DNA of 64,000 bases from Minisyncoccia bacterium. GTDB taxonomy: Bacteria; Patescibacteriota; Minisyncoccia; Phycocordibacterales; PALSA-1337. Both the position numbers and the translations under genes were made by a program. Below, piece by piece: positions 7,766-63,613 of this stretch (within the stretch, counting starts at the first letter, position 1; every line of letters starts with the position of its first letter). The stretch covers positions 1,837 to 65,836 of the forward strand of contig JBBQVG010000001.1 in assembly GCA_038211765.1 (NCBI GenBank), read 5' to 3'. A model generated the notes under the pieces. The model saw only the letters and a list, made by a program, of their open reading frames with translations, was not told the origin of the DNA and ran no database searches.

Positions 7766-7785
7766 CCCAGTAGGTGATCCTACTG
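7766..7785. repeat. copy of TCACCTACTGGG/CCCAGTAGGTGA repeat family (hairpin CAGTAGG-tgatc-CCTACTG) just after rplF
   Basis: 'cccagtaggtgatcctactg'. Related copies at 14084-14138, 52921-52952 and 63491-63613. Confidence 0.55.
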
Positions 7786-7824
7786 AATCACGAATGATGC
7801 CACACGAATGCTACAAATAATCAC

Positions 7825-8175
7825 ATGAACACATTACAGAAAAAACACGAAATATTCAGCCGACGCAAGGCTCGCGTCCGCGCCAAGATCCGTGGAACAG
7901 CAGAACGTCCTCGTCTCGCGGTGTTCAAGTCACACAAATATATATACGTTCAGATCATCAATGACGACAAGGGCAATACTCTGGTCTCAGCAGACTCTCG
8001 TGAAGCAAAGGGCAAGACTCCGGTAGAGCGTGCCAAAGAGATCGGCGTAGAGATTGCAAAGAAGGCAAAAGCAGCTAAGATCACAGCAGTGGTCTTCGAT
8101 CGAGGAGGATATCTATACACTGGTAAGATCAAGATGGTCGCCGATGCTGCACGCGAAGGGGGCTTGAAATTTTAA
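7825..8175 (+). CDS. rplR: 50S ribosomal protein L18
   Basis: '...[44 protein letters not shown]...' is the L18 signature. Confidence 0.9.
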
Positions 8176-8183
8176 ATAACATC

Positions 8184-8894
8184 ATGACTGCAAAAGAAAT
8201 ACAAAAGAATACAGAAGGAGAAGTCGCTGCAGAAACGGTTGCTCTGGATATACCCGTTGCCGCAGTTCCCGTTCCTGAAGTTGCTGCACCAGCCAACAAG
8301 ATCACTCCGGGACGTAAGGTTCGTGGAGACAATGGTCGTCGCGGTGCTCGTCCAGGAAGCACTGGTCCTGGTGGACCTGGCAGAGGTGGACGCGGTGGTA
8401 GGAGTGATACACGTGAGCGCGTAAAACCAGAGTTCGATAGCAAGATTATCGATATTCGACGTGTGACTCGTGTGACCTCTGGCGGTCGCCGTATGAACTT
8501 TAGTGTGGCTGTGGTCGCCGGTGATCGCAAGGGCCGTGTCGGAGTGGGCATGGGCAAGAGTATCGATACTGCCTCAGCCGTCGAAAAAGCTACACGTGAA
8601 GCAAAGAAACATCTCATCCGCGTGCCGCTCTCGGCTCAGATGACTATTCCTCATGCTGTTGAAGCAAAGTATGGCAGTGCACGCATCATGGTCTTCCCAG
8701 CACGCGGTCGCGGGGTAGTGGCTGGTAGCTCGGCACGCGCTGTTATCGAGCTTGCAGGCATCAAAGACGTCTGTGCCAAATTCCTCTCAGGCAGTAAGAA
8801 CCGCGTCAACAACGCCCGCGCCACTGTCGAAGCTCTGAAGAAACTGATGACAGTATCCCGAGAAGTCTTGCAGGGTAAAGAAATAAAGAAATAA
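8184..8894 (+). CDS. rpsE: 30S ribosomal protein S5 with ~75-aa Gly/Arg/Pro-rich N-terminal extension
   Basis: Core 'IIDIRRVTRVTSGGRRMNFSVAVVAGDRKGRVGVGMGKSIDTASAVEKA' matches S5. It is preceded by 'PGRKVRGDNGRRGARPGSTGPGGPGRGGRGGRSD'. Confidence 0.9.
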   Translation: MTAKEIQKNTEGEVAAETVALDIPVAAVPVPEVAAPANKITPGRKVRGDNGRRGARPGSTGPGGPGRGGRGGRSDTRERVKPEFDSKIIDIRRVTRVTSGGRRMNFSVAVVAGDRKGRVGVGMGKSIDTASAVEKATREAKKHLIRVPLSAQMTIPHAVEAKYGSARIMVFPARGRGVVAGSSARAVIELAGIKDVCAKFLSGSKNRVNNARATVEALKKLMTVSREVLQGKEIKK

Positions 8895-8895
8895 C

Positions 8896-60554: not shown

Positions 60555-60555
60555 T

Positions 60556-61224
60556 ATGACAAAGATCCTGAACACATTACATCTCAAACGAGGATACACC
60601 CTGTTATTTGCAGTACTGGTTGCGTCGCTTGCTCTGGGCGTAGCGGTGTTTATACTTTCGGTAAGTCGCAAGCAGTATATTTTGTCTGCTGCAGCACGCG
60701 AGTCCATGTACTCCATGTACGCATCGGATAGTGGTATAGAATGTGGGGCACTGGATCCTCTTCGTAATGACTGGGGTAATGGGGCAGGATCGCCTTCACG
60801 TTCATTCTCCTGTGCTGGCCTTACTCAGTCGATAACATTTTTAAGAAGGTATCCCGCAGATTTCGATAAGAGTGATAGCAACTTTGACAAATATTATACT
60901 GATATATACGGGGATAAGCACTACGCCTATGTCGATTCTCAGGGCAATACACCCTACCCTCAATATGAGGCAGATTTCCGACTTGGATTCAAAGAGTATT
61001 CCAGGACAAGTCCTACTAGCGGAAAGGAATCAACTTGCGCACTTATGAGTATTATTGGATATACGACTGATCTCAATGGACCCGATGAAAAAAAACATAC
61101 CATCATCCAGTCGCGCGGATACAACGTATGCAAATGGCTTACTTATGGAGTAGAGACTACCTATGGACCTGTTCTAAGCAGTCCCCGTACTGTGGAGCGC
61201 GCACGTCAGTTGATAAACGAATAG
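60556..61224 (+). CDS. minor pilin-like protein (PilX-like)
   Basis: 'LKRG|YTLLFAVLVASLALGVAVFIL'. 4 Cys in the C-domain. Confidence 0.5.
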   Translation: MTKILNTLHLKRGYTLLFAVLVASLALGVAVFILSVSRKQYILSAAARESMYSMYASDSGIECGALDPLRNDWGNGAGSPSRSFSCAGLTQSITFLRRYPADFDKSDSNFDKYYTDIYGDKHYAYVDSQGNTPYPQYEADFRLGFKEYSRTSPTSGKESTCALMSIIGYTTDLNGPDEKKHTIIQSRGYNVCKWLTYGVETTYGPVLSSPRTVERARQLINE

Positions 61225-61265
61225 TTTTGTCTTCCGTGTTCCCGTTCTTATGGTAATCTAATGGC

Positions 61266-63497
61266 ATGAAACCTCCTGCCCACAAGCCTCCTGCGGCCGT
61301 TATAGAGCGCCTGTCCAAGCTCAAGGCCACCATCGAGCTCCATCGCTACAACTATCACGTACTCGATAAGCAGGACATATCTGAGGAGGCCCTGGACTCT
61401 CTGAAGCATGAACTGGTGCTACTAGAGACCCAATATCCTGAGCTTATAACCCCAGATTCGCCCTCTCAGCGCGTAGCAGGGAAGCCTCTGCCTGAGTTCA
61501 AAAAAGTTAGGCACACGGTGCCGCAGTGGTCATTCAATGACGCCTTTTCACCCGAAGAAATGCGCGAGTTTGATGCCCGTGTCAAAAGGTTTATGGTGCC
61601 CGCCTTCGCCGAAGGCTACGGCGAGGCAAAGCCCGCCTATAGCCGTGAACACAGGGAGGCAAAGCCCGCCTTCGCCGAAGGCTACGGCGAGGCAAAGCCC
61701 ACTTATACTTGTGAACACAAGATCGATGGTTTGAAAGTAGTGATGGAATATGAAGAGGGAAAATTGATCAGGGCGGCTACGCGTGGCGATGGAACTGTAG
61801 GGGAAGATGTGACCGAGAATGTCCGAACCATCCAGTCTGTGCCACTTGTACTGCGCAGGCCTGTCGATATTATCGTTGAGGGAGAGATTTGGATGGCAAA
61901 AAGTACGCTTGAACGATTGAATAAGGAACGGGAAGTACAAGACCTACCCTTGTATGCAAATCCGCGCAACTTGGCTGCCGGCTCTATCCGCCAATTGGAC
62001 GCAAAGATTGCGGCGGAGAGGCAGCTGGACTCATTTATATATGATGTAGCCAAATATGAGGCCGCGGATAGACCACAGAGCCAAAGTGCCGAGCTTGAAT
62101 TCCTGAGGTCTCTCGGCTTTAAGGTGAATAAATATTTCAAACACGTCAAAGACATCGAAGGCGTCATCGAGTATTGGAAGGAGTGGCAGACCAAAATGCC
62201 CAAAGAAGATTATTGGGCAGACGGTGTGGTGGTGAAGGTGGATGAAACCGAATATCAGCAACTGCTAGGTTATACAGGCAAAGCCCCTCGATGGGGGATT
62301 GCTTTCAAGTTTCCCAGTGAAGAAGTCACTACGGTTCTAGAAGCTATCAACTTTCAGGTAGGGCGAACCGGTGTTGTTACTCCTGTGGCAATCCTGAGAC
62401 CTGTATCTATTGGTGGTTCAACTGTTTCGCGTGCCACGCTCCATAATGAAGATGAGATCAGGCGTCTAGATGTTCGCCTCGGCGATACGGTTATTCTGAA
62501 GAAGGCTGGCGATGTTATTCCTGACATCATCAAAGTGGTGATGGAGATGCGTACAGGCAAAGAAAAACCATTCAAGTGGCCGACGCATGTGCAGGCCTGT
62601 GGTGGCAATGGTGCCATAGTTCGATTTCCTGGCGAAGCGGCTTGGAAGTGTGCCAGTCCAGACTCTTTTGAACAGCAGAAGCGAAAGTTTTATTATTTTG
62701 TTTCCAAACATTGTTTTGATATGGATGGTGTAGGTCCAAAAGTTATCGATGCGTTGCTCGAAAGCCAACTTATTTCTACTTTTGCTGATATTTTTACTTT
62801 GAAAAAAGGGGATATTCTTTCACTGCCGCGCTTCGCTGAGCTTTCGGCTTCCAACGTAGTCGATGCTATCGAGAAAGCTCGCCGTGTGACGCTCGCCAGA
62901 TTTATTGCTGCGCTCTCTATTCCGCAGGTGGGCGAAGAGACTGCCTATGATCTTGCAAAATATTTCAAAAATAAGGCACAACAAGCAACAGGCAATGTAT
63001 TGGGATTTGGGAGTATAGAAGCAAATAATGTAAAGAATGTAAAAAATGTAAAGAATGTAAAAAAGGAAAAAATTGAGGAAAAAACCGAAGCCCTCGATCT
63101 CATCAGGGATGCTTCGAAAGATGATTTTGAATCTATCTACGGTGTTGGTCCAAAGGTTGCCGAGTCACTTTCGACGTGGTTTGCCAGATCCGACAATCGT
63201 AAACTGCTGCAGGTGCTTTTGGAACAAATCGAGATCGTCGAAGATGCGGCAGTTACTGGTCGTGTGGGCAAATTTGAAGGTAAGTCATTTGTGTTTACTG
63301 GCTCTTTGCCAACTCTCGAACGCGACATTGCTCAGAAAATGGTTCGCGACAATGGTGGGGATGTCTCTAGTTCTGTTTCAAAGAAGACTTCATATGTGGT
63401 GGCTGGCGAAGAGGCTGGTTCGAAGCTGGAGAAGGCGCGGGATCTGGAAGTGGCTATTATTTCGGAGAAGGAATTTCTGGAGATGGCGAATCAGTAG
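61266..63497 (+). CDS. ligA: NAD-dependent DNA ligase LigA with in-frame tandem duplications
   Basis: Adenylation motif 'CEHKIDGLKV', Zn-finger 'CGGNG...C', HhH and C-terminal BRCT. A 66-bp tandem duplication (61599-61700) gives 'PAFAEGYGEAKP' x2. A 9-nt x4 repeat (63026-63061) gives 'NVKNVKNVKNVK'. Confidence 0.9.
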   Translation: MKPPAHKPPAAVIERLSKLKATIELHRYNYHVLDKQDISEEALDSLKHELVLLETQYPELITPDSPSQRVAGKPLPEFKKVRHTVPQWSFNDAFSPEEMREFDARVKRFMVPAFAEGYGEAKPAYSREHREAKPAFAEGYGEAKPTYTCEHKIDGLKVVMEYEEGKLIRAATRGDGTVGEDVTENVRTIQSVPLVLRRPVDIIVEGEIWMAKSTLERLNKEREVQDLPLYANPRNLAAGSIRQLDAKIAAERQLDSFIYDVAKYEAADRPQSQSAELEFLRSLGFKVNKYFKHVKDIEGVIEYWKEWQTKMPKEDYWADGVVVKVDETEYQQLLGYTGKAPRWGIAFKFPSEEVTTVLEAINFQVGRTGVVTPVAILRPVSIGGSTVSRATLHNEDEIRRLDVRLGDTVILKKAGDVIPDIIKVVMEMRTGKEKPFKWPTHVQACGGNGAIVRFPGEAAWKCASPDSFEQQKRKFYYFVSKHCFDMDGVGPKVIDALLESQLISTFADIFTLKKGDILSLPRFAELSASNVVDAIEKARRVTLARFIAALSIPQVGEETAYDLAKYFKNKAQQATGNVLGFGSIEANNVKNVKNVKNVKKEKIEEKTEALDLIRDASKDDFESIYGVGPKVAESLSTWFARSDNRKLLQVLLEQIEIVEDAAVTGRVGKFEGKSFVFTGSLPTLERDIAQKMVRDNGGDVSSSVSKKTSYVVAGEEAGSKLEKARDLEVAIISEKEFLEMANQ

Positions 63498-63613
63498 ATT
63501 CGCCTACTGGGTGAAATAGCAATTTCACCTACTGGGTCAATCAGTAGATTCGGCCAGGCAGGAATCTGTGAATCAGTAGATTCACCTACTGGGCTGATTC
63601 ACCTATTGGGTCA
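63491..63613. repeat. cluster of 3-4 tandem copies of the TCACCTACTGGG repeat family after ligA
   Basis: 'aatcagtagattcgcctactggg', 'tgaaatagcaatttcacctactggg', 'cagtagattcggccaggcaggaatctgtg', 'aatcagtagattcacctactgggctgatt'. Near-identical to 14084-14138. Confidence 0.65.

Follow-up and report, generated by a model that had tools for sequence, protein, structure and literature searches.

A short sequence with the core TCACCTACTGGG recurs along the window, the whole stretch of 64,000 nucleotides that we analyzed, and raises the question of what kind of element its copies represent. A sequence-only reading had described them as a hairpin-forming, REP-like family dispersed at the 3' ends of genes, and had suggested that they act as intrinsic terminators or RNA-stability elements.

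Copies in the window and architecture of the unit

Five exact occurrences of the core were found in the window (plus strand, 14121, 63525, and 63582; minus strand, 7766 and 52926), and two more sites on the plus strand, 63500 and 63599, carry one mismatch. With up to two mismatches, 14 matches were obtained against 3.2 expected, a number reached in none of 100 shuffles. A covariance model of the unit gave six strong matches, five at 43-45 bits (plus strand, 14108-14133, 63487-63512, and 63569-63594; minus strand, 7765-7790 and 52925-52950) and one at 26 bits (63513-63537, plus strand). It also recovered a truncated unit at 63595-63611 and a degenerate copy, TGATCCAGCAGGATCACCACGGGGT, that had been overlooked before. 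The core matches and the covariance model thus bear out the dispersed family at the positions first proposed. Its members are as follows.

7765-7791, minus strand: single unit (plus strand A-CCCAGTAGG-TGATCC-TACT-GAATCA-C; 43.3 bits) in the spacer between rplF (stop at 7749) and rplR (ATG at 7825)
10927-10951, plus strand: degenerate unit TGATCC-AGCA-GGATCA-CCACGGGGT, hairpin intact, tail decayed (21.9 bits, E=9e-5)
14078-14107, plus strand: truncated unit AATAAGCAGATTC with an accessory 7-bp hairpin, CAGATTC-GGCCAGGCAC-GAATCTG
14108-14139, plus strand: full unit TGAATC-AGCA-GATTCA-CCTACTGGG (44.8 bits), then CTGATTT, the beginning of a partial next unit
52919-52950, minus strand: full unit (plus strand CCCAGTAGG-TGATCC-TGCT-GGATCA; 43.3 bits) with a CTGATTT extension (52919-52925)
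63487-63536, plus strand: pair of directly adjoining units, head to tail with a period of 25 nt, stems CGAATC/GATTCG and TGAAAT/ATTTCA
63537-63568, plus strand: truncated unit with accessory hairpin TCAATCAGTAGATTC-GGCCAGGCAGG-AATCTG, counterpart of 14078-14107
63569-63611, plus strand: full unit (63569-63593; 43.6 bits), then a 17-nt collapsed unit, CTGATTCACCTATTGGGT (13.9 bits)

The window copies are intergenic, without being specific to 3' ends. At 7766-7790, the unit begins 16 nt past the rplF stop and ends 34 nt ahead of the rplR ATG; that at 52926-52950, between a pilB-like gene (stop at 52911) and a response-regulator gene (ATG at 52985), starts 14 nt past the former and likewise ends 34 nt ahead of the latter. 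The degenerate unit lies in a 324-nt spacer after secY, and the ligA stop (TAG, 63495-63497) falls within the first array unit. The copy that had been placed after ndk is present, but it sits 366 nt past the ndk stop, beyond an ORF-free gap and nearer to the next ORF (48 nt). Across 131 copies, the proposed preference for gene 3' ends did not emerge.

The repeat unit measures 25-26 nt and consists of a 6-7 bp hairpin, TGAWYC-AGYA-GRWTCA, followed by the tail CCTACTGGG(T). Its opposite strand reads 5'-(A)CCCA-GTAG-G-[TGAWYC-TRCT-GRWTCA]-3', with an unpaired GTAG tag directly 5' of a short perfect hairpin; this combination is the defining architecture of GTAG-tagged REPs and supports the earlier description of a hairpin-forming, REP-like family. 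The conserved positions comprise two that are not A, followed by TGATTCAGYAGAATCACCTACTGGGT, and the sequence beyond them is random; the invariance of tail and loop is partly by construction, the scan pattern having fixed both. All hairpins named by the sequence-only reading occur: the stem of the unit itself is TGATCC/GGATCA or one of its variants, the AATCAG...CTGATT pairing joins a unit with the beginning of a partial next one, and CAGATTC...GAATCTG is an accessory hairpin confined to two composite copies (14084-14107 and 63545-63568). The segment at 14078-14107 makes up the left side of a composite of 61-73 nt, which recurs at 63539-63611. The two long copies (14078-14150 and 63539-63611) are 88% identical over 73 nt and about 93% identical over the central 61 nt, short of the value of about 95% given initially.

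Five of the six stem pairs vary on both sides, and 96.5% of cells pair. The covariation score was reached by none of 500 shuffles, and slid controls collapse. Although the pattern of the species scan did not include the 5' arm, pairing between the two arms holds in about 97% of cells. Since the stem covaries, the hairpin is selected as a structure; the stems of the abutting units at 63487-63536 also differ by compensatory changes.

Spread across genomes and insertion sites

When 185,579 species genomes were scanned with the 20-mer, 113 stretches matched, from 81 assemblies; a random 20-mer of equal degeneracy would give about 8.7. The unit is nearly identical across about 80 species of ultra-small Patescibacteria. 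Nearly all of these assemblies are Paceibacteria/Parcubacteria MAGs, mostly with 1-5 exact 20-mers each, and the flanks of the copies are unrelated. The TGAATC stem variant is genome-specific, being present in 3 of 3 copies in assembly CAIMKX and in 3-4 of 8 in the window, compared with about 13% overall. No gene was found to recur beside the copies in their neighborhoods.

The copies take the form of discrete insertions of about 24-27 nt. They are found in both orientations and occupy operon spacers, the loops of terminators and of a 23S intron, and in-frame positions within genes for conserved proteins. The GTAG strand is sense in 55 cases versus antisense in 32 (p=0.018), a bias that we count in favor of mobility. 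Comparison with orthologues revealed in-frame insertions of 8 codons in ABC-F (L082 versus L079) and MurB (L110 versus L041), and also in LeuRS (L055), with PVG(D/E)S(A/T)(E/D)S or DSAESPTG as the added peptide. Between rplF and rplR, L031 has a copy in the spacer whereas L103, whose genome has the family elsewhere, has none; the two spacers also differ by about 8 nt of AT-rich sequence, and neither a clean end nor a target duplication was definable in this comparison. Exact flanking stems of at least 8 bp were counted in 11 cases against 1.6 expected, an excess which indicates that copies sit in terminator loops, and about 10% of the copies lie within genuine terminator hairpins. In two species, a copy occupies the loop of the first hairpin of the 23S intron, with a compensatory stem flip between them. 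Head-to-tail arrays have formed with a 25-nt period, and multi-unit blocks have been copied between loci.

Filled and empty orthologous sites are the behavior of inserted DNA, and the in-frame, terminator-loop, and 23S-intron-loop sites, together with the spacer that is empty in a relative, are explicable only by insertion. We therefore favor, with a probability of roughly 0.6, the reading that the family consists of miniature, non-coding, REP-like mobile elements.

Other readings of the family

We consider it unlikely that the unit is instead a host-serving RNA element whose hairpins stabilize or process polycistronic mRNAs or modulate downstream translation. Its CCCAGTAGGTGATYC strand reproduces an extended Shine-Dalgarno sequence almost perfectly, matching GGAGGTGATCC at 10 of 11 positions, and the other strand mimics the 16S 3' end, GGATCACCT. 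However, these genomes lack a Shine-Dalgarno signal (SD-like sequences at -18 to -4 in 12% of starts versus 14% in a control window), so the mimic has no obvious reader, and the sense orientation shows no enrichment of stem variants that complement 16S better. Copies with CCCAGTAGG in the sense orientation favor the start codon, ending 3-17 nt ahead of an ATG in 23 of 57 cases whereas copies in the other orientation do so in 4 of 35 (Fisher p=0.004). The downstream genes, named from N-terminal sequences, are core genes for which high expression is expected (gyrA, ftsZ, dnaK, rpoC, atpD, rplR, rplN, rplT, rpmA, efp, and ndk). Against this, 37% of oriented copies (32/87) have the opposite orientation, and other copies are found between convergent genes, within an rRNA intron, or inside ORFs. 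G is depleted near start codons in these genomes, and this alone accounts for the G-rich tail being kept off them.

Both strands of the unit fold stably, and on one strand only, an alternative 7-bp hairpin keeps a G-U pair through the Y=C/T polymorphism; yet this hairpin shows no covariation and is broken when the main stem varies. No Rfam family matched the unit, and the exact motif is limited to about 81 of the many Paceibacteria species, in each at different genes. The RNA reading gains from orthologous copies that are far better conserved than their flanks: between L004 and L043, 24-25 of 25 positions are identical while the adjacent gene falls to 67% nucleotide identity. This looks like purifying selection on individual copies and counts against mobility, because a purely selfish element does not obviously predict such conservation.

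The window also carries a transposase gene, listed here for context.

56474-57061, minus strand: Y1/RAYT-type transposase gene (PF01797, E=1.5e-8), the sole one in the window

It strikes us as quite improbable that this RAYT mobilizes the unit in trans, as its second cognate REP class, via a common GTAGGT motif. GTAGGT/ACCTAC is present in both repeat families, the window is unusually copy-rich, and in L014 the REP flanking a RAYT gene has a copy about 120 nt away; moreover, one TnpA(REP) serves several REP classes in E. coli (PMC8266576). Nevertheless, RAYTs of this clade are flanked by locus-specific palindromes of the CAAGG...CCTTG type and never by the unit (window, L014, and 20 of 80 metagenome loci inspected), and not a single copy was found around 80 RAYT relatives (up to 10 kb of flank each, 684 kb). 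The RAYT-flanking REP of L014 is devoid of GTAG, and RAYT-linked repeats vary between genomes while the unit is the same across 81 assemblies. The window RAYT is flanked by the other family, CAAGACCTACCCTTG, which this clade appears to serve. That family is window-specific whereas the 25-nt unit is common to 81 assemblies, so the two are distinct, as had been proposed. In about 900 kb of copy-bearing DNA, Y1 transposases occur only in the window and L014, each flanked by its own different palindrome, and no mobilizing enzyme for the unit was found there; the suggested association with a second RAYT or an IS was tested and not found.

We regard it as very unlikely that a conserved protein uses the unit as a site in duplex DNA, for instance as an operator, a parS-like site, or a DNA-uptake signal. 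In favor of such a role, the motif forms a 16-bp palindrome with a conserved flank, is low in copy number, conserved across species, and present in both orientations and inside genes, and the host clade has genes for type IV pili and competence (the pilB-like gene). But the half-sites change together even within one genome (TGATCC/GGATCA, TGAATC/GATTCA, and TGAAAT/ATTTCA in the window), which means that pairing is preserved and not half-site sequence. Discrete insertions are unlike uptake sequences, which arise by point-mutation drift, the density is far below theirs, and the neighboring genes have no common function.

The terminator reading, which could draw on hairpins on both strands, on several window copies that come after stop codons, and on the copies inside genuine terminators, is rejected as contradicted by the sequence: the stem is AT-rich (2 of the 6 consensus pairs are G-C; ΔG about -4 to -10 kcal/mol), neither strand carries a U-tract behind the hairpin, T is even depleted just 3' of it on the GTAG strand, none of 24 terminator-like calls (7-15 kb and 52-64 kb) overlaps a copy, and copies lie in the ribosomal-protein operon (rplF-rplR), directly ahead of start codons, and in frame inside genes.

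Relation to known elements and proposed mode of spread

REPs are defined by a GTAG tag, stems of 6-13 bp, short loops, sub-families whose stems differ by complementary changes, and the presence of copies within genes; their RAYT genes are sometimes flanked by unrelated repeats (PMC3733652; PMC8266576). The closest named systems are the GTAG-tagged REP/BIME of E. coli, SMAG of Stenotrophomonas, and REPs of Pseudomonas (Di Nocera et al. 2013, PMC3733652; Corneloup et al. 2021, PMC8266576). Like them, the unit has its unpaired GTAG directly 5' of a short palindrome (stem 6-7 bp, loop 4 nt), forms sub-families whose stem changes are complementary, with occasional G-T pairs, and is mostly intergenic in both orientations with some copies inside genes; some REP families are likewise common to distant species, and singletons predominate in some. 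It differs in having no REPtron, the examined RAYT genes being flanked by other repeats, in a conserved tag of 9 nt (CCCAGTAGG) instead of 4, in its AT-rich stem, and in its patescibacterial host. Classical REPs number tens to hundreds per genome, whereas the unit mostly numbers 1-5, and its linker-free head-to-tail arrays are a form reported to be rare for REPs.

Rickettsia palindromic elements of 100-150 bp resemble the unit, as do intragenic REPs, in being palindromic repeats in frame in conserved essential protein genes of small genomes. Like the Rickettsia elements, the unit adds a short hydrophilic peptide, but of only 8-9 codons, and most of its copies are intergenic. Another comparison is with the small dispersed repeats SDR4-6 of heterocystous cyanobacteria (Elhai et al. 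2008, Genome Res 18:1484; cited in PMC3116915). These are reportedly hairpin-forming repeats of 21-27 nt whose mobility was deduced from filled versus empty homologous sites. They are reported to share with the unit size class, hairpin, filled and empty sites, tandem copies, insertion into other repeats and structured regions, and the lack of an encoded protein or known mobilizing enzyme. They reportedly differ in sequence and phylum and are numerous in few related genomes, whereas the unit is low-copy and common to 81 species.

The subterminal hairpins of IS200/IS605, read by the Y1 HUH transposase TnpA through their shape and through an adjacent single-stranded motif that chooses the cleavage site, offer a mechanistic analogy only. 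Such strand-specific single-strand chemistry would fit the strand bias and hairpin-loop insertions of the unit, which nevertheless has one hairpin instead of left and right ends, and no transposase or TnpB gene between or near its copies. If the family is mobile, the folded single strand of the unit would be cut out and then pasted or copied by a trans-acting, hairpin-specific nuclease of the HUH/Y1 type. As with TnpA(REP) and IS200/IS605 TnpA, this enzyme would recognize the stem by its shape, but the invariant tail, CCCAGTAGG, and the loop by their sequence.

Purifying selection would then set the surviving sites (spacers, gene ends, loops, and protein surface loops), and near start codons copies would survive only in the orientation whose G-rich tail lies away from the start. 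When transcribed, copies would form RNA hairpins that may affect mRNA decay, as a side effect and not as the reason for the family. In a phylum for which our literature search found no paper describing REPs, the unit is a new REP-like family.

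Family-2 units in the window and their hairpin

In the window, the 12-mer TCACCTACTGGG has five exact occurrences and two more with a single mismatch. When up to two mismatches are allowed, 14 matches are obtained compared to 3.2 expected, a number that was reached by none of 100 shuffled sequences. Matches are present at the places where a sequence-only reading had listed copies of this repeat family (family 2), so this part of its description holds. Four sites that were read individually, together with the output of a repeat finder, define the unit as TGAWYC-AGYA-GRWTCA-CCTACTGGG(T). 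It is 25-26 nt long: a stem of 6 bp closed by a loop of 4 nt, and then a tail of 9-10 nt that does not vary. With a covariance model of this unit, we located six strong copies in the window, one degenerate copy that was absent from the earlier list, and two truncated ones; the density in the window is 8 units in 64 kb.

Family-2 units located in the window with the covariance model
7765-7790, minus strand: strong unit
14108-14133, plus strand: strong unit
52925-52950, minus strand: strong unit
63487-63512, plus strand: strong unit
63513-63537, plus strand: strong unit
63569-63594, plus strand: strong unit
10927-10951: degenerate unit, hairpin intact, tail decayed
63537-63568: truncated unit
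63595-63611: truncated unit

Judged by Pfam, the genes neighboring the window copies encode L6, L18, NDK, a PilB-type ATPase, and an NAD-dependent ligase. Behind ligA, the units are arranged head to tail, and their successive periods measure 25, 25, 32, 25, and 17 nt. A composite block is present both at 14078-14150 and at 63539-63611; over 61-73 nt, it joins a truncated unit to an accessory hairpin (CAGATTC...GAATCTG), which is followed by a full unit and then by CTGATT. The repeat finder aligned the two blocks with 88% identity over 73 nt; therefore, multi-unit blocks have been copied between sites. The copy that had been described as following ndk stands 366 nt beyond the ndk stop codon. 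An ORF-free gap of about 365 nt (window 13719-14083) separates ndk from the repeat, and the syntenic gap in another copy-bearing stretch (L003, ~3110-3390, between ndk and a beta-CASP RNase J-like gene) contains a TTGACA/TATACT promoter-like pair and a terminator. The gap may encode an unannotated small RNA; Rfam gave no match to it, even at E values up to 10.

The sequence-only reading had proposed a hairpin-forming family, and this is borne out by covariation. Among 38 distinct sequences, 96.5% of the stem cells are paired and five of the six pairs show changes on both sides; the covariation score was reached by none of 500 shuffles, and it collapsed in slid controls. Over all 131 copies, Watson-Crick pairs make up 766 of the 786 stem cells; another 18 cells hold G-T or A-C intermediates, and the remaining 2 hold other mismatches. 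The stem of 6 bp is extended to 7 bp in 27 of these copies, and the loop is the 4-nt AGYA. The variant TGATTC/GAATCA was found in 79 copies, TGAATC/GATTCA in 17, and TGATCC/GGATCA in 9, while rarer variants include TGAACC/GGTTCA, TGAAAT/ATTTCA, and CGATTG/CAATCG. The 5' arm lay outside the pattern used to scan other genomes, and it is nevertheless complementary to the 3' arm. An alternative fold that would compete with it, CAGTAG...CTACTG, is energetically favorable on either strand; we rejected it as a real structure, since it does not covary and every variation of the main stem disrupts it.

On the top strand, CTAC stands one base after the hairpin, and the opposite strand therefore reads GTAG-G-hairpin. 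This GTAG tag is present in all 129 scan-derived copies, in which the scan pattern fixed it, and in 6 of the 8 window units identified independently of the scan. In a position matrix of the 129 copies, conservation is confined to the stretch from two "not A" positions before the unit through the T after GGG; the invariance of loop and tail is partly by construction because the scan pattern fixed both. The degenerate window copies demonstrate that tails are able to decay.

Distribution across species and evidence for insertion

Scanning one genome per species (185,579 species) with CAGYAGRWTCACCTACTGGG yielded 113 stretches (L001-L113) in 81 assemblies compared to about 8.7 expected by our own calculation for random sequence. 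According to their record titles, the carriers are almost all Patescibacteria MAGs, with the labels Nomura-, Kaiser-, and Zambryskibacteria, Paceibacterota, Parcubacteria, and also "Saccharibacteria". Two matches, one in Halothermothrix and one in a gammaproteobacterium, are chance matches in which the 5' arm is absent. Hairpin and tail are well formed in records titled Nanoarchaeota archaeon P6-18 (L107) and Omnitrophota (L093); these two units reflect either mis-binning or mislabeling of the assemblies, or transfer beyond the clade. The flanks of the copies are unrelated from locus to locus, and the MAGs other than that of the window carry 1-5 exact 20-mers each. Family 2 reaches at most about 1 unit per 8-10 kb. 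The other repeat family of the window, family 1 (CAAGACCTACCCTTG), is confined to the window, which upholds the earlier claim that the two families are distinct. Family 2 is a real, well-defined, and undescribed family that is shared across Paceibacteria. Our literature search found its motif in no relevant context, nor did it find a paper on REPs or RAYTs in CPR/Patescibacteria.

We placed 131 copies relative to ORFs that were called by a crude rule, the longest reading frames of 90 aa or more being taken without overlap; by this call, about 80% of the copies lie outside ORFs.

Position and orientation of the 131 copies
GTAG strand (CCCAGTAGG...) is the sense strand of the neighboring genes: 55 copies
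Opposite strand is the sense strand: 32 copies
Between convergent or divergent genes: about 20 copies
Within ORFs: 24 copies

The bias of 55 GTAG-sense copies versus 32 in the opposite orientation has a p value of 0.018. A preference for gene 3' ends, as suggested from the window, is not seen among the 131 copies. GTAG-sense copies frequently end 3-17 nt upstream of an ATG (23 of 57, compared to 4 of 35 in the opposite orientation; p=0.004). The genes directly downstream of them include, judged by N-terminal sequences, gyrA, ftsZ, ftsA, dnaK, grpE, rpoC, atpD, rplR, rplN, rplT, rpmA, rplJ, efp, ndk, and fba. In 15 cases, among them that of ligA in the window, the unit provides the stop codon of the upstream gene.

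Comparisons of orthologous loci reveal filled and empty sites, and the copies within genes are in frame. In the ABC-F protein encoded in L082, LARAAS is followed by the residues SPVGESAD and then by GATI; the L079 orthologue, which is 66% identical, has nothing at this place. Although the unit comprises 25 nt, the gene of L082 has gained 24 nt net, and only events that keep the reading frame therefore survive. MurB of L110 possesses 8 residues more than that of L041, and in the LeuRS gene of L055 and a TrxB-like gene of L073 the unit lies in variable loops. The rplF-rplR spacer is filled, at differing distances to the ATG, in L031 and in the window, and it is empty in L103, which derives from a related species carrying family 2 elsewhere; the unit ends are not fixable to the base in this spacer because its AT-rich sequence also differs by about 8 nt. 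No target duplication is visible at the insertion sites.

Other copies reside within palindromes. Exact flanking stems of at least 8 bp surround family-2 units in 11 cases compared to 1.6 expected; these stems belong to terminators or other palindromes whose loop holds the unit. In a group-I-like intron of ~450-600 nt in the 23S rRNA gene, near the E. coli 2593 region (L086, 6780-7240; L099, 300-760), the loop of the first hairpin holds a unit, and the two species differ there by a compensatory A-T/T-A flip. Furthermore, in L055, L068, L017, and L040 the unit occupies the center of a longer palindromic element that is C-rich/G-rich (cacaacaccc...cccc, unit, tca...gaggggaa). MAG GFS_5272, from which both L055 and L068 derive, has this element in its LeuRS gene as well as in a TsaD-like gene, which indicates that two repeat families became nested and that the composite moved. 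Stem variants are genome-specific, and this points to spread inside genomes. Orthologous copies are identical at 24-25 of 25 positions amid flanking coding DNA with identities down to 67-78% (L004/L043, L084/L098, and L056/L065/L105), a finding that counts against simple selfish turnover.

Relation to known elements and search for a mobilizer

GTAG-tagged REPs bear at one of their ends a GTAG that does not pair, their stems measure 6-13 bp and their loops 2-4 nt; they form sub-families with complementary stem changes and G-T pairs, some of their families are common to distant species, and intragenic copies occur (PMC3733652). Family 2 shares with them the tag, a stem of 6-7 bp, a 4-nt loop, and complementary stem sub-families, and the initial description of the repeat as REP-like holds. 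Family 2 differs from them by the absence of a RAYT linkage and, judged from the exact 20-mers per MAG, apparently by the few copies present in most genomes. The small dispersed repeats (SDRs) of cyanobacteria, attributed to work by Elhai from 2008 that PMC3116915 cites, are reportedly hairpin units of 21-27 nt with filled and empty homologous sites, nesting, and tandem copies. Family 2 resembles SDRs in size, filled and empty sites, nesting in palindromes and hairpin loops, and arrays; the likeness is one of behavior, and we therefore state that family 2 works like SDRs, not that it belongs to them. In its in-frame insertions, the unit also resembles the Rickettsia palindromic elements. Taken together, we assign a probability of roughly 0.6 to the reading that family-2 units are REP-like miniature mobile hairpins.

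In a rival reading, family 2 would be the partner of a RAYT. The window contains a single RAYT-type Y1 transposase gene (PF01797; 56474-57061, minus strand), which is abutted at 57066 and 56466 by family-1 copies.

Family-1 (CAAGACCTACCCTTG) copies in the window
56466-57267, copies on both sides of the RAYT gene
5075-5126
61936-61954, inside the ligA ORF

The RAYT of L014 is 42% identical to that of the window and has its own flanking palindrome, CCAGCAAGGCGWCGCCTTGCTGG; a family-2 copy about 120 nt from this REPtron is the sole fact suggestive of a RAYT link. A metagenome scan with both RAYT proteins yielded at least 570 relatives, of which the best 80 loci were kept. Each of 20 long loci inspected among these has its own CAAGG...CCTTG-type flanking palindromes, and the RAYT genes of the window, L014, and these 20 loci are thus flanked by repeats other than family 2. 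Neither a regular expression nor the covariance model detected a family-2 unit in the best 80 loci (684 kb). Reciprocally, when a RAYT profile built from 84 sequences was run on about 900 kb of DNA that bears copies, represented outside the window by stretches of 8 kb, the genes of the window and of L014 were its sole matches. Family 1 is therefore the classical, genome-specific partner of the window's RAYT clade, and family 2 has no detectable REPtron. The RAYT clade itself looks CPR-wide, with genome-specific REPs. The association with a second RAYT or IS gene that had been raised for checking was not found, neither in the 80 RAYT loci nor as an IS near the copies.

LigA of the window (61266-63497) comprises 743 aa, with the adenylation domain from residue 144 onward; the extra N-terminal region harbors tandem repeats of 33 nt that are rich in GC (61598-61719) as well as a copy of family 1, which suggests that ligA was expanded through repeats.

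Clustering of the neighbors at the 113 loci returned only housekeeping families as recurring genes, and the genes near arrays share nothing beyond the synteny of L015 with the window. With no gene recurring beside copies and no special neighbor common to arrays, we rejected an IS end. No transposase was found among the accessory genes at 32-49 kb of the window (NYN, DUF4238, TspO, SOUL, asparagine synthase, and others). We also rejected the inverted copy pairs 7766/14108 and 52926/63487 as ends of larger mobile segments because the first pair spans the essential rplR-secY-ndk region.

Nested long inverted repeats lie beside tRNA-Ser(act) at 32253-37346 and enclose accessory genes for an NYN nuclease, an Ig-like protein, and a DUF4238 protein; this segment may be invertible or integrated.

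Inverted repeat pairs in the window
32253-32316/37283-37346
32373-32428/34286-34341, 98% identity
34361-34432/37153-37224

A palindrome at their junction (34339-34364, CCCAGTA-N10-TACTGGG) echoes the family-2 tail in both orientations. ARAGORN called tRNA-Ile with anticodon TAT (27193-27267) and tRNA-Ser with anticodon ACT (32166-32253); both anticodons are unusual and may reflect modification-dependent decoding or miscalls.

A role in translation initiation through mimicry of Shine-Dalgarno (SD) or anti-SD sequences is suggested by the match of GTAGGTGATCC to GGAGGTGATCC at 9-10 of 11 nt. SD-like motifs precede 12% of the starts in the window and L001-L113, whereas a control window gives 14%, and the 12 nt directly before start codons are depleted of G; this suggests SD-independent initiation in the clade. 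Since these genomes lack an SD signal and the stem variants do not track orientation, we rejected mimicry, and the resemblance is probably coincidental. The depletion of G is by itself sufficient to explain that the G-rich tail is held off start codons.

In an intrinsic terminator, which closes a transcription unit, a stem rich in G+C precedes a U-tract. The proposal that family 2 acts in this way fails: the consensus stem has G-C at two of six pairs, no T-run adjoins the hairpin on either strand, none of the 24 terminator-like calls at 7-15 kb and 52-64 kb of the window overlaps a copy, and copies are found within operons and also upstream of start codons. DNA uptake sequences (DUS/USS) occur at very high density, are built up by point mutation, and are read as duplex sequence; the low density of family 2, its discrete insertions, and its covarying stem speak against them, and half-sites that covary within one genome likewise exclude a duplex protein site. 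MITEs end in inverted repeats that match an IS, are bordered by a target-site duplication, and usually exceed 50 bp, while the 25-26-nt unit is itself one hairpin plus tail, with no duplication and no IS nearby. CRISPR arrays carry unique spacers of similar length between their repeats, and here the units abut with a 25-nt period. Four viral-contig matches represent one homologous locus lacking the 5' arm, so they are a chance match and no phage vehicle. A described RNA family is ruled out by Rfam, which returned no family for the whole window at the gathering threshold and none for the array, as for the ndk gap, at E values up to 10.

Possible mode of movement and significance

TnpA(REP) recognizes a folded single strand and requires the GTAG; this motif probably determines where cleavage takes place (PMC8266576). 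Modeled on this recognition, the family-2 unit would be moved as a folded single strand by a TnpA(REP)-like activity. In its fullest form, which we regard as doubtful, the reading would make family 2 an active mobile 25-nt hairpin plus tail with no own or nearby transposase. It would be independent of the resident RAYT clade, would have reached at least 80 Paceibacteria species through horizontal spread, with possible strays in Omnitrophota- and Nanoarchaeota-labeled assemblies, and would enter essential genes, rRNA introns, and terminator loops. If true, the most streamlined of all known bacterial genomes would be served by an unrecognized, conserved, trans-acting machinery that moves tiny DNA hairpins.

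CPR genomes of ~1 Mb are usually described as streamlined, with selfish DNA being scarce. Family 2 is a 25-nt element, almost identical in dozens of species, that is able to persist and move in such genomes, including their essential genes and rRNA introns. It is therefore a naturally occurring model for studying how repeats of REP and SDR size disseminate, which is an unsolved question, and the window permits its side-by-side comparison with a classical RAYT-linked, genome-specific repeat. Annotators of these genomes should expect family-2 insertions to appear as 8-9 extra codons in conserved proteins, as stop codons, and as hairpins just before starts.
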